A stretch of 64,000 nucleotides of DNA, from assembly GCA_964445765.1 (NCBI GenBank), contig CAYULD010000002.1:296844-360843 (forward strand), written 5' to 3'. A program made the translations under genes and the position numbers. This document shows, one piece after another, positions 1,935 to 36,983 of the stretch; the first letter of the stretch is position 1; every line of letters begins with the position of its first letter. The DNA comes from an uncultured Rickettsiales bacterium (lineage in GTDB: Bacteria > Pseudomonadota > Alphaproteobacteria > Rickettsiales > UBA8987). The notes under the pieces were generated by a model. The model searched no databases and was not told where the DNA came from. It was given only the letters and a program-made list of their open reading frames with translations.

Positions 1935-2206
1935 TAGGCACTGTTAGCAAAGTTTTATAAAATTTGTTATGTGTCAAAAATTGTTATATACAAGGCAGAA
2001 AGTGAGGGTAATAGTTATTCATATTACCGAGCTTTCTAACGAAGTAGATAGCAATTTTTGTCATAACCTAAAAGGCAATTATTAATTTTGGCATATAACA
2101 GCGATAAATTTTTTGAAATATGGATAACTATTCCTTCAAAATTTATCTTGTTCTCTGCCAAAATTAATCAAATTGCAAATTTATAAAACTTTGCTAACAG
2201 TGCCTA
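1935..2206. mobile_element. ~272-bp structured palindromic element (MITE/REPIN-like), copy 1
   Basis: 27-bp perfect terminal inverted repeat TAGGCACTGTTAGCAAAGTTTTATAAA; two internal hairpin arms; homologous in opposite orientation to 13811-14085 and 36713-36983. Confidence 0.8.
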
Positions 2207-2209
2207 AAA

Positions 2210-2584
2210 CTATAATGTTAAATCGTTATAGTGAATTTCTTTACCATTGGCAAATTGGCATTTTACAGAGCCTTCCAGCTTATTATTAACCATATTTCTA
2301 ACTCTAGTGCATTTAGCACCTATTGCGGAGATGTAGTTTTCCCTTAAAACCTCTTTAATTGCAGAATTTTCGCCATTATGTTGGTAAGAGGTTGAATTAT
2401 TGCCTATAACTCTTTTTTGGCTTCTAACTTCATTTTGATAATCCTGCCACGCAGATTGCCCTTCATATCCGCCATTTTCATCTTCAGAGCAGGCAGAAAG
2501 GAGCAAAAATATTAATCCACAGGATATAAATAACTCTTTCACAATAAATATATTGATTAATTTAGGGGTATAAGTTTTACTCAA
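2210..2584 (-). CDS. Hypothetical lipoprotein in capsule locus
   Basis: Lipobox LSAC after a hydrophobic stretch; start uncertain; upstream of kpsD. Confidence 0.55.
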   Translation of the reverse strand: MSKTYTPKLINIFIVKELFISCGLIFLLLSACSEDENGGYEGQSAWQDYQNEVRSQKRVIGNNSTSYQHNGENSAIKEVLRENYISAIGAKCTRVRNMVNNKLEGSVKCQFANGKEIHYNDLTL

Positions 2585-2608
2585 AATATATAATCAAGTC
2601 ATCAAATA

Positions 2609-4669
2609 GTGATAAATTTTGCTGAAAATACGCAATTTTCTTCCGCAGGTGTGTATACAAAAGGACTATACAGGAAAATCAGTACGCTAAAATCATTCCT
2701 TCCAGAGATTGAAAATATCAAATTTTTTGAGAAAAAACCCGAAGTAATTCTTGGTTGGGGTAAGAAAAATAGCTCAATGCCAGCGAGATTAATTTCAAAA
2801 TACTCCCAAAAGCCATATATTGCACTTGAAGATGGTTTTATAAGATCCGTTGGGCTTGGAAGCCATAACTGGCCGGCACTTTCAATGATTATTGATAAGA
2901 AATCAATTTACTATGATTGCTATAACCCCTCTGATTTAGATATTTTATTACAAAAAACTGAATTCACACCAGAGCTTATAAAAAGGGCAAAAACTAATAT
3001 TGATTTTATAAAAGAAAATAAAATCACCAAATATAATACAGGCGTTAATTATGAAGAATCAAATTTCAGATTTAAGCATAGTAAAAATATTTTATTGATA
3101 GATCAAACTTTCAATGATGCTTCTGTAAAATTATCAGGGGCGGGTGAGGAAGATTTTGATAAGATGCTTAGTTTTGCTCGCAAAATTTATCCAAATCACA
3201 ATTTAGTTATAAAATCTCATCCTGAAATTATCTCTGGCAAAAAGAAGGGTTATCTTAGAAAATATTATGCTGATAAAAACTTCCAAATTATTAGTGAAGA
3301 TATAAATATTTATTCATTAATAGATTATGTTGAGGCGGTTTTTACCGTTTGCTCAACCACAGGGTTTGAAGCGTTAATTGCAGGGGCGAATGTTTATACA
3401 ATCGGCAGAAGTTTTTATAGTGGCTGGGGCTTAACAAAAGATAACAGAAAGCCCTTGAAAGAAAGAAAAAACCTAATTTTAGAAGAATTATTTGCAGTTA
3501 CTTATTTAATTTATCCTAGATATATCAACCCTTATGAAAGGAAGCTCACAACCCCAGAATATGTTTTTGATTTGATAAAATGGCTTAGAGATAAATATAA
3601 ATTTCATTCAAAATCGTATCATTGCATTGGCTTTACTTACTGGAAACAGAATTTTGTATCAGATTTTCTTAAAACGCCTTTTAATCAAGTAAATTTTTAT
3701 AAAAGTGAAAATCAAGCAATTAAAAATGCTAAAAAAGATAATGGCGATATCATAGTTTGGAGTTCAAAAGAAAGTGAGAGCCTAAAAGAAAAAGCAAAAT
3801 CTGAAAATCTGCCAATTAAAAGAATGGAAGATGGCTTTATAAGATCAATCGGGCTTGGCTCAAACTTAATTCCAGCCTCTTCATTAGTGGTTGATAGTTT
3901 AGGGATTTATTATAACTCAGAAAACCCATCAGATTTAGAAAATATTATAAATAATCTAAGGCTAACTAGAGAAAAGAAAAACCAAGCTAGAGATTTAATA
4001 AATTTGATCACTGAAAATAATATTACTAAATATAATTTTAAGGTGAATGACCTTAAATATTATCTGCCAAAAAATAAGAAAATAGTTTTAGTAATAGGGC
4101 AGGTTGAAGATGATGCCTCTGTAAAAGCAAGCAAAGGACAGGTGAAAACCAATCTTAAATTGCTAGAAGAGGCAAGAAAGCAAGAGCCATTTTCATATAT
4201 AATTTATAAACCCCACCCAGATGTTGTTGCTGGCAATCGGGTGGGGCATATTCCAAAAATTATAGCACAACAATATGCTGATTTAGTTGTTGAAACCGCA
4301 AGCATCACTAATTTGGTTAAAAGATGTGATGTTGTATATACAATTTCTTCATTTGTTGGCTTTGAAGCATTGCTTGCTAGAAAGCAGGTAAAAACTTTTG
4401 GTGCACCATTTTATGCAGGTTGGGGGCTTACTGAAGATATTTTATTCTTTATTAATCGCAGTCGCAGAATATCACTTGAGCATTTAGTTTATGCCACCTT
4501 GATTGAATATCCGCTTTATTTTGATTTAGAGGCAAAATTACCCTGCACCGCTGAAATAATTATAAATAAATTTATCAATAAGCCGTTTGAAATATCAAAA
4601 ACTGAGTTAAATAGTAAAAAATTAGGTTTAATAAGATTCATCAAAAAACATTTTTTTAATGAACGCTAA
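2609..4669 (+). CDS. kpsC: Capsular polysaccharide beta-Kdo transferase KpsC/LipA
   Basis: Two tandem domains, each with EDGFIRS.GLG, TKYN, K.HP and FY.GWGLT.D motifs. Confidence 0.9.
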   Translation: MINFAENTQFSSAGVYTKGLYRKISTLKSFLPEIENIKFFEKKPEVILGWGKKNSSMPARLISKYSQKPYIALEDGFIRSVGLGSHNWPALSMIIDKKSIYYDCYNPSDLDILLQKTEFTPELIKRAKTNIDFIKENKITKYNTGVNYEESNFRFKHSKNILLIDQTFNDASVKLSGAGEEDFDKMLSFARKIYPNHNLVIKSHPEIISGKKKGYLRKYYADKNFQIISEDINIYSLIDYVEAVFTVCSTTGFEALIAGANVYTIGRSFYSGWGLTKDNRKPLKERKNLILEELFAVTYLIYPRYINPYERKLTTPEYVFDLIKWLRDKYKFHSKSYHCIGFTYWKQNFVSDFLKTPFNQVNFYKSENQAIKNAKKDNGDIIVWSSKESESLKEKAKSENLPIKRMEDGFIRSIGLGSNLIPASSLVVDSLGIYYNSENPSDLENIINNLRLTREKKNQARDLINLITENNITKYNFKVNDLKYYLPKNKKIVLVIGQVEDDASVKASKGQVKTNLKLLEEARKQEPFSYIIYKPHPDVVAGNRVGHIPKIIAQQYADLVVETASITNLVKRCDVVYTISSFVGFEALLARKQVKTFGAPFYAGWGLTEDILFFINRSRRISLEHLVYATLIEYPLYFDLEAKLPCTAEIIINKFINKPFEISKTELNSKKLGLIRFIKKHFFNER

Positions 4670-5855
4670 CAATAGAAATTTTTTACTTCTGCAAGGCCCT
4701 ATGAGTTATTTTTTTAGGGAGGTTTATTTTCATCTAAAATCTAAAAATTATAATGTTAAAAAAATTTGTTTTAACGGTGGTGATTTATTTTTATCATCTG
4801 GCATTGAAACTATAAAATATACTGAAAAAGCACAAAATTTCATAGAATTTTTAGAAAAATTAGACGCTGGAAATAATTTTACTGATGTTGTTTTTTATAA
4901 TGATTGCAGGTTTTATCACTCAGAAGCTAAAAGGTTTTTTGCTAATAAAAATGTAAAATTCCACATCTTTGAAGAAGGCTATTTCAGGCCATATTGGGTT
5001 ACTTATGAAAATATTGGGGTGAATAATTTTTCTAATATTCCGAGGGATAAAAATTTTTATGAAAATCTAAAACCTTATGATGAAGAAAATCATATTTTCA
5101 AAAAATTCAAATCAACTTTTGCGAAGAAAATTTTATATACTTATATTTACTATGTTTTTAGAACTTATTTTGAAAAATCAGATTTTAAGTTTTATATTCC
5201 ACACAGAACAACCCCGCCAGAGATTGAGGCAAATGGCTGGTTTAAGAAGTTGTTACTTCACAAAATAAAATCTATATTTAACAATAAAAGACAAAAGAAA
5301 TTTCTTTCATTAGGCAAAAAATTTTTTCTGATTGCTTTGCAATTATGCTCAGATAGCCAAATTCAATTTCATTCTGATTATAAAGATATGAAAGATTTTC
5401 TTGTTAATGTTATTAAAGATTTTGCAGAAAATTCTCCAGAAGATACTTATCTTGTTGTAAAATCTCACCCAGAAGATAACGGCGTTGCAGAGCTTGAAAA
5501 ATTTGTGCTAGAAATAGCAGAAAAACATAATCTAAAAGAAAGAATATATTATTTTGATGGCGGCAATATGCCAAAATTTTTAGATGCAATGCTAGCAATG
5601 GTAACCATAAATTCAACCGCTGGAATTTCAGCTTTGCATCATAATAAGCCAGTGAAATTAATGGGCAGAGCTTTTTATAATTTTGCAGGGCTTACTGATC
5701 AAAAAAATTTGGCAGAATTTTGGCATAATCAAGAAAAGCCAGATGAATTATTGTTCCAAAAATTTAAGAATTACATAATGCAAAAAACACAAATTAACGG
5801 CTCATTTTACTCCAAGGAAGGTATAAATTTAATTCTGAATAATATTAGGTTTTAA
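4659..5855 (+). CDS. kpsS: Capsular polysaccharide biosynthesis protein KpsS/LipB
   Basis: LLLQGP, FEEGYFRP.W.T.E..GVN, LQ...DSQI, KSHP, TINST.G motifs; overlaps the kpsC stop. Confidence 0.9.
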   Translation: MNANNRNFLLLQGPMSYFFREVYFHLKSKNYNVKKICFNGGDLFLSSGIETIKYTEKAQNFIEFLEKLDAGNNFTDVVFYNDCRFYHSEAKRFFANKNVKFHIFEEGYFRPYWVTYENIGVNNFSNIPRDKNFYENLKPYDEENHIFKKFKSTFAKKILYTYIYYVFRTYFEKSDFKFYIPHRTTPPEIEANGWFKKLLLHKIKSIFNNKRQKKFLSLGKKFFLIALQLCSDSQIQFHSDYKDMKDFLVNVIKDFAENSPEDTYLVVKSHPEDNGVAELEKFVLEIAEKHNLKERIYYFDGGNMPKFLDAMLAMVTINSTAGISALHHNKPVKLMGRAFYNFAGLTDQKNLAEFWHNQEKPDELLFQKFKNYIMQKTQINGSFYSKEGINLILNNIRF

Positions 5856-5895
5856 TTTAAGTCTTCATTTTCTCAAATCTAGAACCAAAAATATT

Positions 5896-7740
5896 CTAAT
5901 CTGCACTATTACTTACTTTTCTAGCTTTTTCAACGGCGTCTTTTGCTTTAGGGGAGAGCTGAATATTAAGCTCACGAAGCTGTTTTTCTTCCACAAAGCA
6001 AGGGGCGTTCATCAGTAAATCTTCAGCATTTTGATTAAGTGGGAAGGCTATAATCTCACGAATATTTGGCTCATCCGCAAGTAACATCACCATTCTATCA
6101 ACGCCGGGGGCAATACCACCGTGAGGGGGGGCGCCATACTTAAATGCACGAATCATACCACCGAATTTTTCATCAACCACTTCTTTGCCGTAACCTGCAA
6201 TTTCAAATGCTTTATACATTAATTCTGGCTTATGATTTCTTATCGCACCGCTTGAAAGCTCAATTCCATTGCATACAATATCATATTGGAAGGCTTTAAT
6301 TGCGAGTAAATCTTCCTTAGTTTTAGCATTTTCTAGGGCTTCAATTCCACCTTGTGGCATTGAAAATGGATTATGCGAGAAGATGATTTTGTTTTCTTCT
6401 TCATCCCATTCATAATAAGGGAAATCAGTAATCCAGCAGAATTTGAAACAATCTTTTTCAAGTAGATTTAATTCTTCACCAATAATTTTGCGGAATTCAC
6501 CTGCCTGTTTAGCAGCTTTATCTTTCACACCACAAGCAAAGAATAAGCCATCACCAGCTTTGATATTATTTTGAGTTTTAAGTTTTTCAATTTGCTCTGG
6601 AGTTAAATTTTTTGCTATTGGGCCTTTGGCTTCCCCAGTTGCTTCATCAAATATGATATAGCCTAAGCCAGCATAGCCAAGCTCTTTCGCAAGATCATTC
6701 TTTCTATCAAAAAAGCCACGACCTAATTTTGCAGTTTGCGGGGCAGGTATCGCACGAACTATCGCACCGCTTTCAATTTGTTTCGCAAAAATTCCAAAAT
6801 TAGAATTTCGGAAAACCTCAGTTGCATCAGAAATAATCAGCGGATTGCGTAAATCTGGCTTATCAGAGCCATATTTTAGCATTGCTTCATCATATTTAAT
6901 ATGCGGAAATGGATTTGCAGTAACCTTCTTACCATTTCCGAATTTTGTGAATAAATGCGTCATTAATGGCTCAACGGCTGCGAAAACATCGTCTTGTGTA
7001 ACGAAGCTCATCTCCATATCTAGTTGATAAAACTCACCGGGAGAGCGGTCTGCACGAGCATCTTCATCACGGAAGCAAGGTGCAATTTGGAAATATCTAT
7101 CAAAGCCACTTATCATAAGAAGCTGCTTGAATTGTTGTGGCGCTTGTGGAAGTGCGTAAAATTTACCCGGATTTAAGCGGCTTGGAACCAAGAAATCCCT
7201 AGCACCTTCAGGTGAAGAAGCGGTTAGAATAGGGGTTTGAAACTCTATAAAGCCTTGCCCTGTCATAAAATGGCGTATTTCTGAAATAACCTGTGAGCGA
7301 AGAACTATATTTTTATGAATTTTTTCACGACGCAAATCTAGGAAACGATATTTTAGACGGGTATTTTCAGGAAATTCTTTATCAGTATTCACTTGCACTG
7401 GAAGTTGCTCATCTTCAACGAGGCTTTCAGCAATTAAATCTTCAACCACAACTTCAATTTCACCGGTTGCCATTTTATTATTCACTGCCTCTGCCGCCCT
7501 TTCAATTACTTTACCAGTGATAGTAATAACAGATTCAAAGCGGATTTTATCAGCCTCTTCAGGGCTTATTTTACCACCTTGAGGAAAAACTAATTGGGTA
7601 ATGCCATAATGATCACGCAGATCAATAAATAAAACGCCACCGTGATCGCGTTTTCTATGCACCCAGCCAGATAGGCGAGTCTGCTTGCCAGCGTCTGATT
7701 TTTTAAGCTGATTACAATTATGTGTTCTATATTTATGCAT
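5896..7740 (-). CDS. aspS: Aspartate-tRNA ligase
   Basis: MHKYRTHNC start, [39 protein letters not shown]; start reassigned to ATG at 7740. Confidence 0.97.
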
Positions 7741-7749
7741 CTTAATAGA

Positions 7750-7778
7750 AGTTAGAGATTGGGGTTTAGGGATTAGCA
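7750..7778. repeat. Degenerate heptamer tandem repeat upstream of aspS
   Basis: GTTAGAG-ATTGGGG-TTTAGGG-ATTAGC, 7-nt period. Confidence 0.5.
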
Positions 7779-7858
7779 ATTTTTATGCTTTTCTAATTCC
7801 TAGACACTGCAAACTTATTGAGTATATTACTCTGAAAATCAAGAATTTTATAAGATAA

Positions 7859-8653
7859 ATGCGTTTAGAAAAGAAATTTCAAGAATTATCAGCAAGTAAT
7901 AAAAAGGCTTTTATTTGCTATTTAATGGCTTGCGATCCAGCGGAAGAATTTACTAATAATATCTTACCTAAAATGGCTGAAACTGGCTGTGATATTATTG
8001 AGTTAGGTATTCCATTTTCTGACCCAATGGCAGAAGGGCAAATTATTCAAGATGCAACAAAAAGAGCATTAAAAAATAATTGCGACATTAATAAAGTTTT
8101 TGAAATTGCATCAAATTTTAGAAAAAAAAATAATCATACGCCAATAATTTTAATGGGCTATTATAACCCTGTTTTGAAATATGGTATTCAAGAATTTCTT
8201 GAAAAATCAAAAGTTTCAGGGGTTGATGGCTTTATAATCGTTGATTTGCCTTTTGAAGAAGAAAATGAATTCACCAAATTTAGTGATGAATATAACCTCC
8301 CTTTAATAAGGCTTACTACCCCAACCACTGATGAAAATCGTGCTGAGAAAATTCTAAAAACCGCTAAAGGTTTTGTTTATCACATCACCGTTGCAGGCGT
8401 AACAGGGCAGAAGGAAGCCATTGCTGATTTAGTTTCTTCTGGAATTAAGAAAATTAAAAAATATACAAGCCTTCCAGTTTGTGCAGGTTTTGGTATTAAA
8501 ACACCTGAGCAAGCAGAAGCAGTTGCAAAAAATGCTGATGGCATTGTTATTGGCTCCGCACTTATAAAAATGATTGAAGAAAATCTTACTAACCTAAAAA
8601 TTGCAGAAGAAAAAATATTAGAATTTATCAGAAATGTGAGAGCTAAAATTTGA
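7859..8653 (+). CDS. trpA: Tryptophan synthase alpha subunit
   Basis: IELGIPFSDPMAEG, LMGYYNP, GVTG, GFGIKTPEQ, DGIVIGSA. Confidence 0.95.
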   Translation: MRLEKKFQELSASNKKAFICYLMACDPAEEFTNNILPKMAETGCDIIELGIPFSDPMAEGQIIQDATKRALKNNCDINKVFEIASNFRKKNNHTPIILMGYYNPVLKYGIQEFLEKSKVSGVDGFIIVDLPFEEENEFTKFSDEYNLPLIRLTTPTTDENRAEKILKTAKGFVYHITVAGVTGQKEAIADLVSSGIKKIKKYTSLPVCAGFGIKTPEQAEAVAKNADGIVIGSALIKMIEENLTNLKIAEEKILEFIRNVRAKI

Positions 8654-8666
8654 TTACACTATTTAC

Positions 8667-9770
8667 CTATAGCTCAATAAATTCTATATTATTTAGGCCG
8701 GTGAAATTGGTTTTTTCTGTTCCAGTAAGCCAAGTTTGGCAATCAACTTCTTTAATGAAATTAAATAATTTGCCCCTTTTTTCTTCATCTAAATGTGCAA
8801 TTACTTCATCTAATAACAACACAGGAAAAAACCCCGTTTGGCTTTTTTTAGCAATAACTGATGCTATAGTTATTGAGAGTAAAATCGCCTTTTGCTCCCC
8901 CTGAGAGCATAATTCCGCTGGCATATTTTTTACGCTATGAATGGCTCTAAAATCTGTTTTATGAATTCCAAAATTTGTCTTTTTAGAATTTGCATCTAGA
9001 TGGCGGTTTTCTCTAAGTTTTTCCTTGAAATAATTTTCTACTAAAATTGCTTTTTTATTTTGTGAAATATAATTTTCTACCTCCCCAATTAAGCTCAAAT
9101 TAGCAATCGGAAAGCCTGAATCATAAGCATTTTTCATAGAGTTATTAAGCCTTTCACATAACTCAAGGCGGGCATAAGTTATTGCAATAGCTTTTTCAGC
9201 CATTTTTTGCTCAAGGCTGGTTAGCCAATAATCATCAAAATTATTTGTGATAAGTAATTTTCTTCTCTCTGATTTCGCCAGATTATAAACTATTAGTAAA
9301 TCTGAATAATCAGAAAAAAATAACTCACATAAATTATCTAAATAATCCCTTCTGGAAGTTAAACCTTGAGAGAAAACTTGATCTTGCATAGGCGTTAATG
9401 CCGTGTAATTAAAATGCTCTGAAAGCTCTTTGGGTGATCTAACCTCTTGCTGGTTAATTCTCACCCTGCGTTTTTCCTTTCCTGATTGCGTATAATCAAG
9501 GCTTGTGCCAATTTGTGCTTCACCTTCTAACCCAAAAATTTCAGCGTATATAACAAAATTTTCAGATGGATTTTTGATATTTTTAATCTCTTGCAGTTTT
9601 GCATTTCTTAAGCCTTTACCACTATAGAGCAATGAGATTGCCTCAAGAATATTGGTTTTTCCAACGCCATTTTTACCAATGATTGCAATATTTTTTGCCT
9701 GCGGTGAATATTCAAAATTCAGATGATTTCTATAATTAGATAAGGCTATTTTATTAATTTTTATATTCAC
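8667..9770 (-). CDS. recF: DNA replication/repair protein RecF
   Basis: Walker A GKNGVGKTNILEAIS, CSQGEQK, LLLDEVIAHLD. Confidence 0.93.
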   Translation of the reverse strand: MNIKINKIALSNYRNHLNFEYSPQAKNIAIIGKNGVGKTNILEAISLLYSGKGLRNAKLQEIKNIKNPSENFVIYAEIFGLEGEAQIGTSLDYTQSGKEKRRVRINQQEVRSPKELSEHFNYTALTPMQDQVFSQGLTSRRDYLDNLCELFFSDYSDLLIVYNLAKSERRKLLITNNFDDYWLTSLEQKMAEKAIAITYARLELCERLNNSMKNAYDSGFPIANLSLIGEVENYISQNKKAILVENYFKEKLRENRHLDANSKKTNFGIHKTDFRAIHSVKNMPAELCSQGEQKAILLSITIASVIAKKSQTGFFPVLLLDEVIAHLDEEKRGKLFNFIKEVDCQTWLTGTEKTNFTGLNNIEFIEL

Positions 9771-9820
9771 AAAAATATATGTCAGATTATAATCAGCACT
9801 AGAAATATATATAAAATAAA

Positions 9821-10702
9821 ATGAAAAAAGTTAAAACTGCAATCTTTCCAGTTGGGGGGCTAGGCACAAGGTTTTTGCCTGCAACTAAGGCTTTACCCAA
9901 AGAGATGCTAACAATTGTTGATAAGCCAATTATCCAATATGCTTTTGAAGAAGCAAAAAATTCAGGAATAGAAAAATTTATTTTTATAACCGGTAGAAAT
10001 AAAAATGTTATCTCAAATCATTTTGATCATGTTTTTGAATTACAAAAAGTGCTTGAAGATAAACAAAAAAGTGAGGTTCTTGCACTTACTAAAGATTGGT
10101 TGCCACCGGCTGGAAGCATTGCATTTATTAGGCAACAACAGCCATTGGGTCTAGGACACGCAGTGTTATGCGCAAGAAATTTTCTTCAAAATGATGAGCC
10201 TTTTGCAGTTTTGCTCGCTGATGAATTATTCTATAACCCAGCTAAGCCAGTTCTCTCGCAAATGATTGATATTTGGAACAAAAAACAAGGCGGAAATATT
10301 ATCGCTGTAAGAGAAGTTGAAAAGCACAAAACTAGCTCTTATGGTGTTATAAAGCCAGCTTCAGAAAAGCAGGATAATTTTATAAAAATTGCTGAGATGG
10401 TTGAAAAGCCTAAATCTGAAGAGGCTCCTTCAAATTTTGCTATCGTTGGCAGATATATTTTAAGCCCTGAAATTTTCTCATATTTAGATAAAACTAACGC
10501 TGATAAAAATGGTGAAATTCAACTTACATCTGCCCTTGATGCAATGGCTAAAGGTGGGATTAATAGTTACGGTGCATTAGTTGAAGGTGAAAGATTTGAT
10601 TGTGGTGCTAGAAGAGGTTTTGTTGAAGCAAATATCGCCCTTGCCCTGCACAACCCAGAAATGCGAGAAGATATTCTTAAATTAGTAAAAAGATATAGTT
10701 AA
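9821..10702 (+). CDS. galU: UTP-glucose-1-phosphate uridylyltransferase
   Basis: PVGGLGTRFLPATKALPKEML, QPLGLGHAV, VEKP, GEIQLT. Confidence 0.95.
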   Translation: MKKVKTAIFPVGGLGTRFLPATKALPKEMLTIVDKPIIQYAFEEAKNSGIEKFIFITGRNKNVISNHFDHVFELQKVLEDKQKSEVLALTKDWLPPAGSIAFIRQQQPLGLGHAVLCARNFLQNDEPFAVLLADELFYNPAKPVLSQMIDIWNKKQGGNIIAVREVEKHKTSSYGVIKPASEKQDNFIKIAEMVEKPKSEEAPSNFAIVGRYILSPEIFSYLDKTNADKNGEIQLTSALDAMAKGGINSYGALVEGERFDCGARRGFVEANIALALHNPEMREDILKLVKRYS

Positions 10703-10745
10703 TCTAAGTTTTTGTTATTAGAACTAGTTAAATTTTGCTCAAGAA

Positions 10746-12539
10746 CTAATAAACATCACGCTGATAGCGGTTTTCTTTCTTGAGTTTAAGAACATATTCT
10801 CTCGCAAAATCATCACCCTTGCCTGAAACTTCAGAAATTACTTGATGAAGGGTTTTATCAACATCTTTTGCCATACGCTTTTCATCACCGCAAACATAAA
10901 AATATGCACCTGCTTCTAGCCAGTCAAAAAATTCTTTTTTACGAGCATAAATTTTATGCTGAACATAAACTTTTTTCAGGCCATCACGAGAAAACGCCGC
11001 ATCAAAATTAGTGAGCAAACCTTTTTTGAAATAATCTTGCCAATCAAGTTGATATAAGAAATCATAATTATAGCGTTGCTCACCAAAGAAAAGCCAGTTT
11101 TTACCTTTTGCATTTATTGCGTCGCGTTCTTGCATAAAAGCACGAAATGGCGCAATGCCAGTGCCGGGGCCAACCATTATAATTGGCTTATCTGCATCTG
11201 GTAATCTAAAATTTTTATTGGGCTTAAGATAAATTTTTATTTTATCATTTTTATTTATGTCATCAGCTAAAAAGCCAGAAGAAACACCATTTCTAGCCAT
11301 ATTAAAGCTATTATATCTAACAGTTGCAACGGTTAAATGAACTTCATCACCAACAATTTTTTGCGATGAGGCAATAGAATATAAACGAGGGGGGATTTTT
11401 CTTAAAACCTTAACAAAATCTTCTGCCTTGATGTTTTTAATTGGATAATCTTTGATTAAATCTATTAAAAATCTGCCGTAAATATATTCAGAAATTTCAG
11501 GCTTTTGAGATTTTTCTAAAAGTTTTTTATCCCCAATAAGCTCTGCATAATTTTTAATTAAGAACGCTGAAAGTGAGGTTATTTCATAATCTTCAGTAAG
11601 TAACTGGCTTAATTTTTTGCCTTCAATTATTTCATCACCGCTAAAACCAAGTGCTTTAAGGGTTTCAGCGACTAGGCTTTGGTTATTTTGAGGGATAATG
11701 CCAAGTGCATCACCAACTTCATATTTTATGCCTGAATTTTCAAGGGAAATAGCGTAGTGATAAGTTTCTTTTTCTGAGCCTTTTTCGCTTAGTAGAACCT
11801 TATCTGCAAGCTCAGCAATAAATGGCTCAGAAGGGCTATATTCCTTACCGCCTGCACCGAATAAGAGAGAAAAATCAACTGCGTTGGTAGCATTTTTAAT
11901 ATCTATTTTAGTAGAGGCATCAACGCCATTTGTCTCTAAAAATTTATTTAGGGCTTTTTCTATCCATTCATTCGCGGGCTTTTCAAAATCAACATCGCAA
12001 TCAATTCTATCATAAATTCTTTTTGCACCAAGATTTTCAAGCTTTTCATCAACATCTTTGCCAGCACCACAAAATTTAACATATGATCTATCGCCTAAGG
12101 CACAAACGGCAAAATTTAATTCACTAGATAATTTGGGAGCATCATTTTTAAGAAGGTTTTTATAAAATTCTGTTGCCCTTTCTGGTGGGTCGCCCTCCCC
12201 CCAAGTGCTAAGAAAAACAAGCAGATTTTTATGCTCAGTTAATTTTGCAACTTCGGTGTTGAACATATCTGCAATAACTGGCTTAAAGCCTTTTGCCTTG
12301 GCAATTTTAGCAGCTTTTGCGGCCAACCCTTCTGAGTTGCCAGATTCTGAGCCATAAATTATAAAAATTGGGATAGCTTTTGCATTAGGTGCTTCTGTAA
12401 TTTCGCCCGAATTATTAAGTGCATAATTGCCCAAAAACGCCCCTAGATATAAAGATTGCTCTTTAGTAAGGCTTGGGATTAGGCTTTCAATAAGCTTTTT
12501 CTGCTCATTAGAAAAATTAGGTGTGTTGCTTTCTGCCAA
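10746..12539 (-). CDS. cysJ: Sulfite reductase (NADPH) flavoprotein subunit
   Basis: Flavodoxin YGSESGNSE/STWGEGDPP, RLYSIASS, GPGTGIAPFR, C-terminal RYQRDVY; TTG start. Confidence 0.9.
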   Translation of the reverse strand: MAESNTPNFSNEQKKLIESLIPSLTKEQSLYLGAFLGNYALNNSGEITEAPNAKAIPIFIIYGSESGNSEGLAAKAAKIAKAKGFKPVIADMFNTEVAKLTEHKNLLVFLSTWGEGDPPERATEFYKNLLKNDAPKLSSELNFAVCALGDRSYVKFCGAGKDVDEKLENLGAKRIYDRIDCDVDFEKPANEWIEKALNKFLETNGVDASTKIDIKNATNAVDFSLLFGAGGKEYSPSEPFIAELADKVLLSEKGSEKETYHYAISLENSGIKYEVGDALGIIPQNNQSLVAETLKALGFSGDEIIEGKKLSQLLTEDYEITSLSAFLIKNYAELIGDKKLLEKSQKPEISEYIYGRFLIDLIKDYPIKNIKAEDFVKVLRKIPPRLYSIASSQKIVGDEVHLTVATVRYNSFNMARNGVSSGFLADDINKNDKIKIYLKPNKNFRLPDADKPIIMVGPGTGIAPFRAFMQERDAINAKGKNWLFFGEQRYNYDFLYQLDWQDYFKKGLLTNFDAAFSRDGLKKVYVQHKIYARKKEFFDWLEAGAYFYVCGDEKRMAKDVDKTLHQVISEVSGKGDDFAREYVLKLKKENRYQRDVY

Positions 12540-12696
12540 TTTATTAAATAATTAGTTTGCGTCTTGTTACTAAAATTGTGGATATTTTTCAACATTATTT
12601 TAATTAAATTGCTTTTAGGCGATAGAATTCGCCTTAAAATTTGCCTTGCATCATCAAAATTATTACAATCACAATCCGAATTAAACAAATTAATCT

Positions 12697-13431
12697 ATGA
12701 AGAAACTAGCATTTTTAGCTACAGCAATAATTTTTACGCCTATGTTAGCAGAGGCACAAAGCTACAATTATCCAGCTTCTATGAAGCATAAATTAAGCGT
12801 TGATGGTGGCTTAATGTTCGCAAGTGGTAATACTAAGGTGGAAAATCTTAACGCCAATTTCAATTTAGCATCTTCTAAAGGTAAAATTTCTAATACATTA
12901 ATGGGAAGGGCGATTAACTTGCAACAAGGTGGGCAAAGGGCTGATGAAGATTATTTGCTTAATAATAAACTTAAATATGATATTAACGAGAAATTATACG
13001 GCTTTGGTGAGCTTGAATATTTTAATGATAGATTTGCAGGTTTTGAACACAGAATGCACGAGCTTGCTGGTTTAGGTTATTACATCAGAAATGATGAGAA
13101 AGTTAAGTTATCAGTTGAAACAGGTGCAGGTGCTAGGCAAACTAATTTCACTGGCAATAAGGAAGATATAAACGAATTTACCGCTAAAGCTGGTGGTGAT
13201 TTGAATTATAAGCTAAATGAGAATGTAGAATTTAACCAAAATGTTGGTTATTATTGGGGTTCTGATTTACAAGTTACAAGGGCACAATCAGCACTTAAAG
13301 CTGGCTTAACTGATGATATTTATTTCAAAGCTGGCTATATAATTGAAAATAATTCCGAAGTTCCAATTGGCAGAAAAAACAATGACCAACTAACAACTAT
13401 TGGCATTGGTTATGAATTTGATAATGAGTAG
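12697..13431 (+). CDS. Outer-membrane beta-barrel protein, DUF481/YdiY-like
   Basis: Signal peptide; SGNT, DRFAG, G.GY, C-terminal IGYEF pattern. Confidence 0.75.
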   Translation: MKKLAFLATAIIFTPMLAEAQSYNYPASMKHKLSVDGGLMFASGNTKVENLNANFNLASSKGKISNTLMGRAINLQQGGQRADEDYLLNNKLKYDINEKLYGFGELEYFNDRFAGFEHRMHELAGLGYYIRNDEKVKLSVETGAGARQTNFTGNKEDINEFTAKAGGDLNYKLNENVEFNQNVGYYWGSDLQVTRAQSALKAGLTDDIYFKAGYIIENNSEVPIGRKNNDQLTTIGIGYEFDNE

Positions 13432-13460
13432 TATTATTCTGAGTTTAGAAGATATTTTCT

Positions 13461-13524
13461 AAAAGCTAGGGGGCTTTTGCGGTGTCACCGCTTTTGCCCC
13501 TTTCGCCCCTCGGTAGCCTTTTTC
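13461..13524. terminator. Probable bidirectional intrinsic terminator
   Basis: GC-rich nested stem GGGGC-TTTT-GCGGT-GTC-ACCGC-TTTT-GCCCC flanked by A- and T-tracts, between convergent units. Confidence 0.55.
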
Positions 13525-13560
13525 AGCAACTAAGTAACTGCATAACTACCGTAACAAATG

Positions 13561-13635
13561 TTAAGCTATAAAACCTAAAGCTGTAACCCTTGCTAATTGT
13601 GGTAGTTTGCAGTTAAATATACACGAAGTAGACAT
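13561..13635 (-). CDS. Putative 24-aa small ORF (MSTSCIFNCKLPQLARVTALGFIA) within a structured RNA, with an extended SD
   Basis: AAAGGAGGTAATCCA directly before ATG; long hairpin over the ORF; terminator downstream; not in the ORF track. Confidence 0.5.
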   Translation of the reverse strand: MSTSCIFNCKLPQLARVTALGFIA

Positions 13636-13810
13636 TGGATTACCTCCTTTACATTGCGTAAAAACTCTAAAAAATTAGAGATTACTAACCTATAAACTAA
13701 TAAATTCGGCTATTTATAAAATAAAAATAGTTTAAGAAATGCTATATTTTCAAAAAAATTTAAGCAAGAAAAGTTTTTATAATTTTTAGTAATTCAAATT
13801 TTATAATAAT

Positions 13811-14085
13811 TATAGTTAGTTGTGTTAAGTTTAAGAGTATTTGCAACAAGATAATTTTGCTTTAGAGCAAAGGAAAAATGAGCGAGATAGTTACTCATAT
13901 CTGCGAGATTTTTTCTGTAGCAATAAAGCAAAATTAGCAGTTGCCCTTTGGGTTGCTGCAAAAATTAAAAAATAGTTCGTTAAAAAGCTCGGAGATATGA
14001 ATAACTATCTCGCTCGCTTTTTGCCTGCTATTTTTTAATTTTTGACCGGCAACAAATGCTCTTAAACTTAACGCAACTAACTATA
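13811..14085. mobile_element. ~275-bp structured palindromic element, copy 2
   Basis: 33-bp terminal inverted repeat TATAGTTAGTTGTGTTAAGTTTAAGAGTATTTG (2 mismatches); two arms with loop GATAGTTAYTCATATC; central CCCTTTGGG. Confidence 0.8.
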
Positions 14086-14086
14086 G

Positions 14087-15406
14087 CTAAGAATGCGTAA
14101 TACTTGCACCAAGATTAAGCATTAAATCTTTGAAGCTCGGGAAGGAAGTTGCAATCATTTCAGGCTTATCAACAGAAATAGGTTTTCTAGAGGCAAGCCC
14201 TGCAATAAGAAAACTCATTGCAATTCGGTGATCACCATGCGTTGGAATTAAATTACCACCCTCAATTTGCCCGCCCTTAACAGCTAAACTATCATCTGAG
14301 CCGATTTTTGCCTCAACACCAGATAGCTCAAGCCCTTTTCTAATAGCTTCTAGGCGATTACTTTCTTTTACTTTAAGCTCCCCAAGCCCTCTCATAATGG
14401 TTTCACCCTTTGCTTTTGCTGCCACGATTGAGAGAATTGGATATTCATCAATCATAGAAGGGGCGCGTTCTGCCGGCACTTCAACCGCCTTTAAGTTTGG
14501 AGAATATTTTGCAGTAATATCTGCAACTTCTTCACCGGCCTCAACCCTTATATTGGTAAATTCAATATTTGCCCCCATCTCTTGCAGGGTTTGATATAAA
14601 CCAATTCTGGTAGGGTTAATTAAAACATTTTGAATTGTAACCGCAGAGCCTTCCGTAATAATTGCCGCAACTAATGGAAATGCCGCAGAAGAGGGATCAG
14701 CAGGCACTATAACATCTTTAGGTGTAAAATTTTGTTGCCCCAAATATTTTATAATATTTAAGCCATTTTCTTGAGTAATAGAAATCTCACCACCGAAATG
14801 TTTAATCATCATTTCTGTGTGATCTCTAGTTTTTTCCTTCTCAATTATTGTGGTTATTCCGGGGGTATTTAATGCAGAAAGTAATATCGCAGATTTAACT
14901 TGTGCCGATGCAACTGGAAGCTCATATTCAATGGGTAACATTTCATCAGCACCTTTAACCATAAGGGGTAAAAAATTTTCTTCTCTGGCTTCAAAATGAG
15001 CACCCATTAATTGCAGTGGCACTGTAACACGACGCATAGGCCTGCCACGCAAACTTTCATCACCGGTAAAGAATGTGCGAAAATTATAGGGTGCAACTAA
15101 GCCCATTAACAGCCTGCAACCAGTGCCAGAATTACCGCAATCTAAGGAATCTGAAGGCTCACTGAGGCCACCAACCCCAACGCCATCAACAATATAATCA
15201 GAATTTATTTTATTAATTTTAACCCCAAGTTTTTGCAGGCAGGCTTTTGTATTAAGAACATCTTCACTTTCAAGGAGGCCTGAAATTTTTGTTTTACCAA
15301 TTGCTTGTGATGCAAAAATTAACGCACGATGTGAAATTGATTTATCACCCGGAACGGAAATTTTACCTTTGAGATTATTAGAATTATTTGCCGTTAGAAT
15401 ATTCAT
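14087..15406 (-). CDS. aroA: 3-phosphoshikimate 1-carboxyvinyltransferase (EPSP synthase)
   Basis: VPGDKSISHRAL, GNSGTGCRL, ASAQVKS, RDHTE, KESNR, DHRIAMS; start reassigned to ATG at 15406. Confidence 0.95.
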   Translation of the reverse strand: MNILTANNSNNLKGKISVPGDKSISHRALIFASQAIGKTKISGLLESEDVLNTKACLQKLGVKINKINSDYIVDGVGVGGLSEPSDSLDCGNSGTGCRLLMGLVAPYNFRTFFTGDESLRGRPMRRVTVPLQLMGAHFEAREENFLPLMVKGADEMLPIEYELPVASAQVKSAILLSALNTPGITTIIEKEKTRDHTEMMIKHFGGEISITQENGLNIIKYLGQQNFTPKDVIVPADPSSAAFPLVAAIITEGSAVTIQNVLINPTRIGLYQTLQEMGANIEFTNIRVEAGEEVADITAKYSPNLKAVEVPAERAPSMIDEYPILSIVAAKAKGETIMRGLGELKVKESNRLEAIRKGLELSGVEAKIGSDDSLAVKGGQIEGGNLIPTHGDHRIAMSFLIAGLASRKPISVDKPEMIATSFPSFKDLMLNLGASITHS

Positions 15407-15855
15407 TAAAATTCCTCTTCCTTCCAACGCATACCACCGAATATATATTTAACTTCATTATCACCTTTGCGAGCAGTTAGCGGAAATAATTTTTGGCGAT
15501 ATTTAACAATAGAATAGATGCTACTTTCAAATTCGCCTTCATCAATAAGCTCTTTCTTATTGGAAATTACATCAGAAAATTTGCGAGCCATTTTGTGATT
15601 TGTAGGAAGTATCATTCCAGTAAAAGGGGTATCAAATTTTTCATCTCTAACAACTTTTAGCAAATTTTCACCGAGGTAAGAAAAGCGATAAGGCTCTTCA
15701 GCTTTAAGTAAGAAACAATCACTCGCAACTTTTTCAATCGCTGAAAAGACAATTTGTTCCTCCGCGGCTATTTCAGAATTTGCTTTTTCCTTCAAATCTT
15801 TGAAGTAATTATCAAGAAAATCAGCCAGCCTCATTCTTCTAAACTCAAACCCCAT
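15406..15855 (-). CDS. PAS-domain-like protein (alphaproteobacterial PAS_5 type)
   Basis: FSYLGENL...YRQKLFPL...VKYIFGGMRWK pattern; TAATG overlap with aroA. Confidence 0.55.
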   Translation of the reverse strand: MGFEFRRMRLADFLDNYFKDLKEKANSEIAAEEQIVFSAIEKVASDCFLLKAEEPYRFSYLGENLLKVVRDEKFDTPFTGMILPTNHKMARKFSDVISNKKELIDEGEFESSIYSIVKYRQKLFPLTARKGDNEVKYIFGGMRWKEEEF

Positions 15856-15866
15856 AAAATATTTTT

Positions 15867-16298
15867 TTAGATATTTTTTATTACATTTTCAAAATTGTAT
15901 ATAAAATATACATAATATATTGCCCTGTAGATACACATTATTATAAGTGTTTTCAACCATTTAGTTTTTAGAAAACCAGAAAAAAACGGAAAGAGAATAT
16001 TAATTTCAGGAAATACCAAAACTGCCCCAAAAAGATACAAAAATTTATTGGTGTAATGTGCTAGATTTCTGTAATTGTAATTGTCAAAGAATTTTGAAAG
16101 AAGTTTGGCAAGATAAAAACAAATTATATAAGATAAAAATAACCCAGCCATAGAGCCAAAAAAAGCCGTAATTACAGCAAGGTTTTTATTTTCATAATTA
16201 TCAAAATAAAATAGCATTGGCAAAGCAAGCTCTTTACTAAAACTTAGTAAGAAATTTGCTTTTAGCGAATCAATAAAAATTTCTAGTAATATTTCCAT
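15867..16298 (-). CDS. Small membrane protein, YqaA/DedA-like
   Basis: Four hydrophobic segments; F.DS..AN.LL...E and GS.AG motifs. Confidence 0.5.
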   Translation of the reverse strand: MEILLEIFIDSLKANFLLSFSKELALPMLFYFDNYENKNLAVITAFFGSMAGLFLSYIICFYLAKLLSKFFDNYNYRNLAHYTNKFLYLFGAVLVFPEINILFPFFSGFLKTKWLKTLIIMCIYRAIYYVYFIYNFENVIKNI

Positions 16299-16308
16299 AG
16301 TTTTTTCG

Positions 16309-16366
16309 CGTATCGTTTATCGTTCATCGTATAGCGATTAACCATTAACGATAAACGATATACGAA
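16309..16366. repeat. Inverted heptamer array forming a hairpin after hisF
   Basis: TATCGTT TATCGTT CATCGTA ... TAACGAT AAACGAT ATACGAA; 14-bp perfect inverted repeat. Confidence 0.65.
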
Positions 16367-16367
16367 C

Positions 16368-17129
16368 CTAAACCCTAACTTCAACGCCATTTGCCATCAT
16401 ATAATCTTTAACTTGTTTTATGGTAAATTGCCCAAAGTGAAAAACACTTGCCGCCAAAACAGCATCTGCCTTACCTTTGATAACACCTTCTACAAAGTGA
16501 TGCAACGCCCCAACGCCGCCTGATGCAATAATTGGTATTTCTAAATTTGAACTTATTAGAGAAGTTAGCTCACAATTAAAGCCTTGTTTTGTGCCGTCTC
16601 TATCCATAGAGGTAAGTAAAATTTCACCTGCACCAAACTCTTGCATTTTTTTAGCCCAAGCAAGAGCTTCAAGCCCAGTTTCTTTTTTACCGCCGTGGGT
16701 ATAAATTTCATATCTATTTTTAGCTTCATTAAATTTTGCATCTATAGCAACTACTATACATTGCTTGCCAAATTTTTCTGAGGCTTTTTTAACAATTTCA
16801 GGGTTTGTAACCGCTGCACTATTGATTGAAACTTTATCCGCACCACTATTTAAGAGTTTTCTGATATGCTCAACATTCTTAACGCCACCCCCAACTGTTA
16901 ACGGCATAAAACAGTTTTCTGCCACTTGCTCAACAATATGATAAATATTTTCACGATTTTCACCAGATGCAGTAATATCAAGAAAGCATAATTCATCAGC
17001 ACCTTGATCTTCATAGATTTTGGCTTGTGTTACGGGGTCGCCGGCATCAATCAGATTAACAAAATTAACGCCTTTAACAACTCTGCCATCTTTAACATCA
17101 AGGCAGGGGATTATTCTTTTCTTTAACAT
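16368..17129 (-). CDS. hisF: Imidazole glycerol phosphate synthase cyclase subunit
   Basis: [41 protein letters not shown]. Confidence 0.97.
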
Positions 17130-17183
17130 ATTGTAACTTATAACTCTATAAAACTGAACTATTATATGATATTATAAAAAATT

Positions 17184-17651: not shown

Positions 17652-17658
17652 GAAAATT

Positions 17659-21252: not shown

Positions 21253-22012
21253 TTTTTCTAATCGGCCTGAAAATTCAAGCATAGATTGTATTATTCTGCA
21301 TTATACGGGAATGAAATCTACCAAAGAGGCTCTAAAAAGAATGTGTGATACTGAGGCTGAAGTGAGTTGCCATTATTTAATTGCTGAGAATGGCGAGATT
21401 ATTCAGCTAGTTGATGATGAATTTAAGGCTTGGCACGCAGGAAAAAGTTTCTGGCAGGGCAGGGAGAACTTAAATAATAATTCTATCGGTATTGAAATTT
21501 CAAATTTTGGGCATCAATGGGGCTATAAACCCTTTGAAGAGGAGCAAATAGAAGCCGTAATTGAATTATGCAAACATCTAATTGAAAATTATAATATCAA
21601 ACCGCAAAATATTTTGGGTCATAGTGATATTGCCCCATCTAGAAAAGAAGATCCGGGTGAATTATTCCCTTGGAAATTACTTGCAGATGAAGGCATTGGG
21701 CTTTGGTATGATTTTGAAATTGGTAAGGCTAATTACAAAAAGCAAATAGAATTAACTAAAGATTTAGAAAATCTAAAGAAAGAAGACGTAATTTTAATTC
21801 AAGAAAAATTATCAAAAATTGGTTATAAAATAGGCAAAAAATCTATTCTTGATGAGCAGACTTTGAAAGCAATTATAGCATTTTATAGAAGGTTTATTCC
21901 ACAAAGAATATTAATGTGTAATAATAAACAACACCCTGAATATATCGGTTGGGATGAACTTTCAAACACGGTTGCTGATAATCTAATTAATAAAATTACT
22001 ATAGCTAAATGA
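21224..22012 (+). CDS. N-acetylmuramoyl-L-alanine amidase (Amidase_2, AmiD/AmpD-like)
   Basis: SPNF..R, ILHYT, VSCHYLI, AWHAG, SIGIEI, GHSDIAP.RK.DPG. Confidence 0.9.
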   Translation: MKITKIPSPNFSNRPENSSIDCIILHYTGMKSTKEALKRMCDTEAEVSCHYLIAENGEIIQLVDDEFKAWHAGKSFWQGRENLNNNSIGIEISNFGHQWGYKPFEEEQIEAVIELCKHLIENYNIKPQNILGHSDIAPSRKEDPGELFPWKLLADEGIGLWYDFEIGKANYKKQIELTKDLENLKKEDVILIQEKLSKIGYKIGKKSILDEQTLKAIIAFYRRFIPQRILMCNNKQHPEYIGWDELSNTVADNLINKITIAK

Positions 22013-22096
22013 ATATAAATCATTTAGCTATAGATAGAAATTGATTGCTATAGCTAAATAAGTATAAATCATTTTAGAAAATAAAGGCTAAATTTT

Positions 22097-30313: not shown

Positions 30314-30372
30314 ATATTATATAGTTTTTTAGTATTTATTATATGTATTAAATAGTAGATTATATTGAAGTC

Positions 30373-30427
30373 TGTCATGTTGAGCGTAGCGAAACATCTA
30401 AAGATCCTTCGCTTTGCTCAGGATGAC
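30373..30427. repeat. GTCAT...ATGAC palindromic repeat
   Basis: TGTCATGTTGAGCGTAGCGAAACATCT..GATCCTTCGCTTTGCTCAGGATGAC; related copies at 36566 and 38697. Confidence 0.75.
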
Positions 30428-30545: not shown

Positions 30546-30592
30546 ACTTTATTCTCTAGCTCCCTAAAACCTAGCCTCTAGAACCTAGCCCC

Positions 30593-35037: not shown

Positions 35038-35060
35038 TCTAAAAGTTTAATTTATAATTT

Positions 35061-35384: not shown

Positions 35385-35394
35385 TTGAGGATTT

Positions 35395-35685
35395 ATGGCT
35401 TATAAAAAAGATAAAAAGAAATTTGACGAATCAAAATTTCAAATCAACCCTGCAATGTTGCCTCAGGTTTTCTCTAAGAGAGAGAGGGAATGCCCACTTT
35501 CTGGTGAAAACGCACCTATTGTTAATTACAAAAATGTTTCATTGTTGAAAAAATTCATTTCTGAAAGGGGTAAAATTCTTCCTAGAAGAATTACTTCTAT
35601 TACTGCTAAAAAGCAAAGGGAGCTTGCAGAATCAATTAAACTTGCAAGAAATATCGCTTTATTGCCTTATGTTAGCAATCAATAA
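35395..35685 (+). CDS. rpsR: 30S ribosomal protein S18
   Basis: [22 protein letters not shown]...KKQRELA..IK.AR..ALLPY. Confidence 0.97.
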
Positions 35686-35714
35686 TTTATATAGAAAATT
35701 TTAATAGTAATTTT

Positions 35715-36308: not shown

Positions 36309-36313
36309 TAATA

Positions 36314-36479
36314 AGGAAGTGTTCACTATCCATAGGTATATCTGTCATTACCCGAATTTTTATAAAGATATCAATCTTTAGAAAAATTATAGGGTAATCT
36401 AAATCAATAGGTTAATGGATCGCCCTATAGTTGCTTCGCAACTCGGGCGATGACAATCTATACATATTGAACACTTCCT
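36314..36479. repeat. Composite palindromic element: GTCAT...ATGAC repeat nested in a 12-bp inverted repeat
   Basis: Outer AGGAAGTGTTCA/TGAACACTTCCT; inner TGTCATTACCCGA...TCGGGCGATGACA. Confidence 0.7.
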
Positions 36480-36565
36480 AATATTATATTTTTTTGTTAG
36501 AAAATAGCAATTTAGGCAAGCAATTTATCTTTAGTTTTTTTATTAAAATATTTTATATCTAGCTA

Positions 36566-36627
36566 TGTCATGTTGAGCTTAGCGAAATATCTACAGATTT
36601 TGCCCTTTCGTTTTGCTTTAGAATCAT
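36566..36627. repeat. Degenerate GTCAT-family repeat
   Basis: TGTCATGTTGAGCTTAGCGAAATATCT nearly identical to the start of the 30373 copy. Confidence 0.6.
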
Positions 36628-36712
36628 ATGAATACTCTCTATATTAAGTAATCACTTACAAATATGTTTCTTAAATCTATTGACATTGCAATAAAATAAA
36701 ATAGATAGATTT

Positions 36713-36983
36713 ATAGTAAAATGCATTTGAATTAATTGGTTTGCAACAAGATAATTTTGCTTAATAACAAGAAAAAATCAAGTGAGATACTTATTGATAT
36801 CTCCGCAGATTTTTTCGCAGTTAGAAGGCAAAATTATCAGTTGCCCTGTGGGTTGTGAGTAAAAAATAAAAATTATTTCGTTAAAAAGCTCGTAGATATG
36901 AATAACTATCTCGCTCGCTTTTTGCCTGCTAATTTTTATTTTTTACTCACAACAAACTAACTAATTCAAATTCATTTTACTAT
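36713..36983. mobile_element. ~271-bp structured palindromic element, copy 3
   Basis: 31-bp terminal inverted repeat ATAGTAAAATGCATTTGAATTAATTGGTTTG (3 mismatches); core near-identical in places to copy 2 (TTCGTTAAAAAGCTCG.AGATATGAATAACTATCTCGCTCGCTTTTTGCCTGCTA). Confidence 0.8.

Follow-up and report, generated by a model that had tools for sequence, protein, structure and literature searches.

Probable orphaned type II MITEs with a deeply conserved double-hairpin core in the genome of an uncultured Rickettsiales bacterium

A 64,000-nucleotide stretch of DNA from an uncultured Rickettsiales bacterium (the window; positions 296844 to 360843 of contig C2 of the genome designated G000) carries three palindromic elements of 271 to 275 bp, e1, e2 and e3, which belong to a dispersed multicopy family. 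We put at about 70% the probability that these elements are type II MITEs (miniature inverted-repeat transposable elements) that were moved in trans by DDE transposases of the IS5 family, of an IS427-group-like kind, and that are orphaned in this genome. The core of the elements, a pair of hairpins, is conserved more deeply than the ends and far beyond the expectation for a passive interior, and for this reason "ordinary MITE" is not the whole story. The G000 genome comprises 1.69 Mb in 6 contigs, has a G+C content of 32.6% and is 99% complete.

Architecture of the elements

Each element consisted, in order, of a 27- to 32-bp terminal inverted repeat, TTTG, a hairpin arm of 88 to 89 nt, a CCY-N3/4-RGG centre, a second arm, CAAA and the partner repeat. 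This plan, and the positions of the three elements, had been proposed in a first-pass annotation made from the sequence alone, and both were confirmed by inspection of the sequence and by folding. As single strands, the three elements were all much more stable than their shuffles, with fold energies of -71.1, -67.2 and -64.7 kcal/mol against shuffle means of -27.5, -21.0 and -23.0 (z = -12.1, -13.7 and -11.7; 0 of 200 shuffles equally stable in each case). No open reading frame (ORF) of at least 80 aa was found inside e1, e2 or e3.

The second arm was a hairpin of the same family as the first, lying on the opposite strand. R-type arms had the unpaired motifs AGGC and AACGAA and an apical loop GTTATTCA, while L-type arms had unpaired GAACAAG-like and CGnnGT-like motifs and an apical loop GTTACTCA or CTTATTGA. 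As every element had one L-type and one R-type arm, with the plus-strand arm always preceding the minus-strand arm, the element is a two-fold architecture and not a simple fold-back. The unpaired loops had been described as fixed; this was correct within an arm type and did not hold between L-type and R-type arms. The compensatory stem changes that had been quoted (GGTAATA/TATTACC versus GAGATA/TATCTC, plus the outer stems) were present in the arms, which had a G+C content of 24 to 33% in the window copies. The features were as follows, in window coordinates.

1935 to 2206, unstranded: e1, end type T1 (TAGGCACTGTTAGCAAAG...), occupying the entire spacer between two minus-strand genes, with gaps of 0 and 3 nt
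1935 to 1965, plus strand: e1 left terminal inverted repeat, partner at 2177 to 2206, matching the ends of IS5-family insertion sequences
1974 to 2061, plus strand: e1 R-type arm with AGGC / AACGAA loops and apex GTTATTCA, 88.9 bits
2067 to 2075, unstranded: e1 central mini-hairpin CCT-AAA-AGG
2081 to 2169, minus strand: e1 L-type arm, 78.2 bits
13811 to 14085, unstranded: e2, end type T2 (TATAGTTAGTTG...), right end separated by 1 nt from a minus-strand gene's stop codon
13850 to 13938, plus strand: e2 L-type arm, 90.2 bits
13937 to 13959, unstranded: e2 central hairpin GCAGTTGCCC-TTT-GGGTTGCTGC
13958 to 14045, minus strand: e2 R-type arm, 96.4 bits
36713 to 36983, unstranded: e3, end type T3 ((T)ATAGTAAAATGC...), ending 11 nt upstream of a tRNA gene
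36750 to 36838, plus strand: e3 L-type arm with apex CTTATTGA, 87.1 bits
36859 to 36946, minus strand: e3 R-type arm, 97 bits

A double change was observed at the apex of the e2 R-type arm. The closing pair G...C (GTTATTC, window positions 13999 and 14005) was swapped to C...G (CTTATTG), separating e2 copies that are otherwise 98 to 99% identical (the copies at C2:391467-391554 and C2:277157-277244). The same swap also appeared as paired variants in contigs assembled from DNA sequencing runs.

Copies and end types in the genome

A BLAST search of G000 with the three elements detected 32 merged intervals, comprising 17 full two-arm copies and 15 fragments of 21 to 113 bp. What had been presented as a family of three elements is therefore three in the window, together with three more fragments there, and 17 full copies in the genome. 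These copies were gene-less and dispersed, in agreement with the proposed non-autonomous, multicopy nature of the element. Full copies fell into five end types:

T1 (type of e1), terminal sequence TAGGCACTGTTAGCAAAG: 8 full copies
T2 (type of e2), terminal sequence TATAGTTAGTTG: 4 full copies
T3 (type of e3), terminal sequence (T)ATAGTAAAATGC: 2 full copies
T4, terminal sequence TATAGCTAAATGATTATAAATAG: 1 full copy
T5, terminal sequence TAGGGCGTGTTGAYATTTAATT: 2 full copies

Besides the full copies, the genome contained solo ends, copies with internal deletions and one T5 copy with a single arm. Copies of one type were identical at 96.0 to 98.5% for the six major T1 copies, 95.3 to 98.9% for T2 and 100% for T3, in which the identical partner of e3 lies on the same contig; between types, full copies were 46 to 85% identical. 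The flanks were different at every copy and the loci were unrelated. The terminal repeats were conserved in sequence within each multicopy end type, and the T2 and T3 ends both started with TATAGT. The claim that the terminal repeats are unrelated thus failed for e2 and e3, and each of the types is a conserved, multicopy one.

Ends of the T1 type and a partner insertion sequence

The outermost 14 to 20 or so bases of the e1-type repeat were conserved in sequence across genera. Using the first 14 bases of T1 (TAGRCACTGTTAGC) with at most one mismatch, 31, 16, 15 and 7 occurrences were detected in genomes G003, G009, G004 and G001, respectively; reversed-pattern controls gave 0 to 2 matches per genome, and the motif was abundant in 4 of the 5 related genomes checked. 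In related genomes, insertion sequences (ISs) of the IS5 family, 835 to 844 bp long, had ends that agreed with T1 ends at about 19 of 21 bases. The IS of G008 was complete at 835 bp, with ends TAGGCACTGTTAACAAAGGTA, and that of G013 was complete at 844 bp, with six compared copies that were 99.9 to 100% identical. Both contained overlapping DUF4096 and DDE_Tnp_1 ORFs and matched the NCBIfam model transpos_IS5_3. In size, two-ORF layout and 2-bp repeat they agree with the IS5-family group IS427, for which a table of Paracoccus ISs has been published (PMC3281130, Table 2).

In G003, the same ends were carried by an IS and by MITEs. Three sampled copies of a two-arm MITE of about 273 bp were 99.3 to 99.6% identical, and 9 to 10 copies had identical model scores. 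The first 23 bases of these MITEs also formed the end of an IS at which contigs break, and the last ORF of this IS was the C terminus of a DDE_Tnp_1_2 transposase (E value of 8.9e-9). A matching transposase was thus found in the same cell as the elements in G003 and was not found in G000. No arms were detected in copies of the IS; one locus, L090, was an IS that had these ends and an internal deletion. As the interior of the MITE is not IS sequence, the elements would be type II MITEs in the sense in which PMC10969869 defines the term. The first-pass annotation had named a match of each terminal repeat type to the ends of a different known autonomous IS as the result that would make these elements ordinary MITEs; such a match was obtained for e1, and no partner IS was found for e2 or e3.

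Searches with the other end types yielded less. With T4-type ends, the only sites found by a family-wide pattern search were MITEs or solo ends in genus g1. Of 13 metagenome matches to a T2-type 19-mer, all diverged directly behind the 19-mer, and neither an element nor an IS followed. A literature search for the end sequences returned only unrelated primer matches. In our reading, e2 and e3 would nevertheless have an IS5-type partner as well.

An IS630/Tc1-type partner was also considered, as suggested by the TA flanks of the elements. DDE_3 was absent from G000 and was present only as fragments in 2 of the 18 genomes of the family, neither of which had arms by BLAST.

TA flanks and empty sites

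TA was present at both ends of all end types in the G000 copies, and also at both ends of six IS copies in G013. In the same-genus genome G001, e2 was missing from the orthologous site together with its repeats. Four G001 elements were tested for synteny in the other direction. For two of these, the T1 copies L016 and L050, both flanks mapped to one G000 site without an element or a palindrome; for the other two, the flanks lay on different G000 contigs. These results indicated that species differ in the presence or absence of the complete unit with its repeats; the exact TA duplication, for which the first-pass annotation had proposed the comparison of empty sites, was unreadable in such diverged sites. 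At e1, the corresponding spacer of G001 held other, GC-rich repeats, and the e3 region was rearranged in both G001 and G002. When contigs from four DNA sequencing runs were compared to window positions 1 to 20000, none spanned a site of e1 or e2 that was empty; the contigs broke at the elements.

Spread and covariation of the double-hairpin core

A covariance model of the arm, R1, was built from the six window arms (alignment A2). Within the family, 11 of 18 genomes, belonging to 7 of 13 genera, had paired arms according to R1; across the order, arms were present in 15 of 151 genomes, representing eight families. A search of all GTDB species genomes for T1 ends lying 235 to 260 bp apart found 13 stretches, in metagenome-assembled genomes (MAGs) labelled Rickettsiales, Azospirillum, Micavibrio, Alphaproteobacteria and Pseudomonadaceae. 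R1 was applied to seven of the 13 and detected arms in five, and a sixth (L097) had the same plan in a GC-rich form, as judged by reading and folding. The same plan was found elsewhere under other ends (TAGAGCATAT, TAGGCTCTGTTGTG, ATGACACTGTTATT, TAGGTTCAATCGGCATG, AGGTCCTGCAGA, TAGAACCTATCTCAC and TATAGTTGATTAAGG). Nearly all of these start with TAG and several are variations of T1, and about a dozen end types were seen overall.

Covariation was examined in 55 arms (51 distinct rows) from 11 genomes. In the alignment used (A3), which was fitted to the model so that the figures lean towards structure, 91.0% of cells could pair, compared to 66.0% in shuffles (0 of 500 reached the observed value) and 41 to 52% with the partners slid. 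Double-sided changes were observed in all 28 pairs. With six opposite-strand rows dropped, unpaired positions were 76 to 98% conserved in the remaining 46 distinct rows, in which G.T exceeded A.C by 66 to 32, a difference possibly inflated by alignment bias. The model built from the window copies, which the first-pass annotation had put forward as a check, detected arms across the order, and the covariation in their stems was real. Comparison with Rfam, also put forward there, assigned no family at the gathering threshold: in gathering and E-value modes, only generic hairpin (miRNA-precursor) matches were returned, at 9.5 to 25.5 bits against cut-offs of at least 35. Promoter and terminator scans inside e2 and e3 gave counts at or below the shuffle expectation.

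Mosaic copies

The core of e3 was identical at 215 of 215 positions to that of the single T4 copy, while the ends of the two elements were unrelated and the identity dropped abruptly at TTG...CAA. T4-type copies in G001 had e3-like cores at 84% identity. The L-type arm of T1 occurred with two alternative inner parts, one of which recurred, inverted, as the R-type arm of T5. Overall, these observations indicated that cores are exchanged between end types. The mosaicism is most simply explained by elements recombining or undergoing gene conversion with one another; less probably, the core may have moved on its own. Short end-to-end palindromes of 53, 35 and 22 bp without a core were also detected, and some short ones kept remnants of the core.

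Explanations for the elements

In the explanation that we favor, mobilization in trans by IS5-family transposases, the terminal inverted repeats would be the sites of binding and cleavage. Every copy reads TA-G...C-TA; insertion would occur at TA, and the TA would be a true target duplication. The interior of about 215 bp would not be derived from an IS and would be an old conserved module, in which a CCC-N3-GGG centre is flanked by two distinct 88-nt hairpins, each read inward on its own strand, starting at its own end. Such a module may have persisted while the ends diverged or were replaced, with whole cores and half-arms being swapped between end types by recombination. The G000 copies may have been stranded recently, or may have been moved by a source outside the assembly.

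Several results weigh against this explanation. No matches to DDE_Tnp_1, DDE_Tnp_1_2, DUF4096, DDE_3 or Y1_Tnp (PF01609, PF13586, PF13340, PF13358 and PF01797) were found in G000, which extends to the genome, for these five families, the earlier statement that no mobilizing enzyme lies in the window. No IS-sized repeats (at least 500 bp) were found in this genome, and yet it contains two T3 copies that are 100% identical. No IS with T2-, T3- or T4-type ends was found. Among the 18 family genomes, DDE_Tnp_1_2 was detected in 4, compared to 11 with arms, and both were present only in G003 and G013; G002 and G008 had the IS and no arms. The three usable empty sites were only 75 to 87% identical around the junction, with small indels, so the exact junction could not be read and the TA could not be separated from the repeat. 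The interior keeps its structure and its unpaired motifs across the order, whereas a passive MITE interior should decay. In the young copies (major T1 and T2), 21 of 40 substitutions fell in the unpaired positions, which make up 113 of 547 (21%), where about 8 would be expected. The other 19 were at paired positions: 11 broke the pair, 5 produced G.T, 2 formed one compensated pair and 1 restored a pair.

Poor co-occurrence of arms and IS is weak evidence, because draft assemblies often lose ISs, and the absence of a transposase lowers the likelihood that the elements are currently mobile in G000, not that they are MITEs. Pairs of ends at the distance expected for an IS were also not found in this genome, and no transposase-like ORF was seen by eye on its small contigs C5 (3,090 bp) and C6 (1,748 bp). 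A ParA-like partition ORF and ORFs resembling surface proteins were present on these two contigs, which may be pieces of a plasmid or of foreign DNA and not of the chromosome.

A different view, which we regard as unlikely, would take the double-hairpin core itself as the real persistent unit, a strand-specifically folded single-stranded DNA or RNA module under selection that repeatedly acquires new IS-type ends or lands inside short end-to-end palindromes; it might act as a transposition enhancer, as a site for a host factor or as an orientation-independent RNA module tolerated in operons. It would account for the occurrence of one plan and one arm model under about a dozen end types in eight families of the order, and for the identical e3 and T4 cores with unrelated ends and the shuffled inner parts of the T1 and T5 arms, but gene conversion could also yield identical cores. 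The pairing and double changes, the conserved unpaired positions and the excess of G.T over A.C point the same way, as does the roughly 4-fold avoidance of paired positions by substitutions in young copies; however, A3 was fitted to the model, hairpin-templated repair could keep the stems without function, and part of the G.T excess may come from alignment bias. Copies that fill operon spacers, and hence are transcribed, would suit such a module. The short palindromes that lack a core agree with this view but are explained equally well by internal deletion, and some keep core remnants. A core without flanking repeats was never seen, ends and core arrived together at empty sites, and these sites showed no palindrome into which a core could have landed. 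In a further, tentative reading, the double hairpin could be a functional, strand-specifically folded module, a true long-lived replicator that recruits host-suited IS5-type ends and is kept by selection, either boosting mobilization in trans as an enhancer that binds a protein or host factor, by which an element with no genes could compete for transposase, or making operon insertions harmless in either orientation. We would still bet against this reading.

Recognition of the structure by an enzyme of the HUH or REPIN kind had been proposed at the outset, and this was largely refuted. In an element resembling REPINs or IS200/IS605, a Y1/HUH enzyme would recognize the hairpins as single-stranded DNA and the terminal stems would be structural only, which agrees with two inverted hairpins with conserved loops and with subterminal parts of the end stems that vary in sequence and still pair. 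Four Y1_Tnp candidates were scored in G000, and none passed. Furthermore, the arms are 88 nt and AT-rich compared to the 20- to 40-nt GC-rich REP units, the end sequence conserved across genera equals that of DDE ISs, TA flanks the elements, and the hairpins lie on opposite strands between terminal inverted repeats, unlike the ends of IS200/IS605. We consider this reading very improbable. Equally little credence is given to a family of structured noncoding RNA genes with terminal stems that form part of the RNA. The strong fold and the covariation would be expected of such genes, but the lack of an Rfam family at threshold, the lack of promoter or terminator enrichment, the "sense" orientation of the two arms on opposite strands and the insertion polymorphism of the copies between species all argue against it.

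Gene context and neighboring repeats

According to crude ORF calls, the neighbors of 19 copies were tandem in 13 cases, convergent in 5 and divergent in 1, and this was not a clear departure from the genome-wide 942 tandem, 246 convergent and 245 divergent pairs. Three T1 copies abutted the ATG of an ORF of 212 to 535 aa. In three copies, the terminal TAG was the stop codon of the upstream ORF (open frames of 352, 172 and 500 aa). Such direct contacts of elements with start or stop codons were noted at C1:506349, C2:435154 and C3:125534 and at window positions 1932 to 1934. As such elements replace whole operon spacers, the spacer-filling copies must be transcribed with their operons. Shorter relatives of the elements in the window were as follows.

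21999 to 22077, unstranded: T4-type terminal sequence in two short copies, of which the first is a 35-nt palindrome
53260 to 53290, plus strand: solo T1-type terminal repeat, in which a C>A change creates the ATG that starts ORF 53266..53751
57017 to 57058, unstranded: T5-type remnant, internally deleted, with 10 nt of the left end and 33 nt of the right end

The solo T1 repeat supplies the ATG and about the first 8 codons of the 161-aa ORF 53266..53751, which by eye resembles a secreted protein with a thioredoxin fold (WCPYC), and the upstream ORF 52945..53262 ends within the same repeat.

The tRNA gene beside e3 occupies window positions 36995 to 37068, and the TACTAT upstream of it might also serve as a -10 box. 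A perfect 22-nt palindrome made of the outer 11 bases of the T3 end was present at C1:622708-622729 as well, 4 nt upstream of another tRNA gene. A different family of short palindromic repeats, D2 (TGTCATGTTGAGC...GCTCAGGATGACA-like), was present at window positions 30360 to 30415, 36553 to 36608 and 38686 to 38741, and the second of these copies lies directly left of e3. In another genome (locus L100, G043:C3:134800-137700), two 278-bp copies with yet another end type, 98.6% identical to each other, flank a single 310-aa ORF. By eye this ORF is porphobilinogen deaminase-like, and the layout resembles a composite transposon around a housekeeping gene.

Comparison with known systems

The literature searched yielded no description of this element family; ISfinder, Dfam and the supplementary files of papers lay outside that search. 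The palindromic elements of Rickettsia, RPE-1 to RPE-7, are repeats of about 100 to 150 bp that often lie in frame inside genes. The present elements are also palindromic repeats of a lineage labelled Rickettsiales and are set apart from RPE-1 to RPE-7 here by description only; the D2 repeats of the window are shorter repeats of the general RPE kind. Correia elements of Neisseria, of about 100 to 155 bp and confined to one genus, are orphan TA-flanked MITEs with repeats of about 26 bp; they are often cotranscribed, and their transcripts fold into a long hairpin. In a comparison made by description only, the two families are alike in their orphan, TA-flanked MITE form, and we know of no paired subterminal hairpins with conserved loops in Correia elements.

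REPINs, which depend on the Y1 transposase RAYT, consist of two inverted palindromic units, GC-rich REPs of 20 to 40 nt, that form a larger hairpin, and they are non-autonomous (PMC3337134). The elements described here share with them the two inverted palindromic units in one larger hairpin and the lack of autonomy, and differ in their 88-nt AT-rich arms, in the absence of a Y1 gene and in true terminal repeats that match those of a DDE IS.

The elements also resemble the type II MITEs of IS5-family ISs of the IS427 group. The elements are small and gene-less, their repeats equal IS ends (for T1), only the ends are common with the IS, the TA at both ends would fit the 2-bp repeat, and the copies are dispersed and mostly intergenic. 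They differ from these MITEs in having an interior that is conserved more deeply than the ends and order-wide under about a dozen end types, two distinct structured hairpins, and a host genome without a transposase.

The ends are what usually defines a MITE family, and such families last only briefly within a genus. In the present family, the interior is the conserved part: two distinct hairpins, whose stems covary and whose unpaired bases are fixed, occur in at least eight families of the order and in further MAGs of alphaproteobacteria, flanked by a variety of IS5-type ends. Should the hairpins be important for mobilization, they would represent a testable cis-acting requirement for transposition of the IS427 group, a little-studied mechanism; if they matter at the RNA level, they would show how mobile DNA fits into the tight operons of a reduced genome. 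In Rickettsiales-like MAGs, the elements break assemblies and supply stop and start codons, and such repeats can readily be annotated there with the arm model R1 as a marker. If the module reading set out above is true, this would be a MITE whose heritable function lies in its interior and not in its ends.

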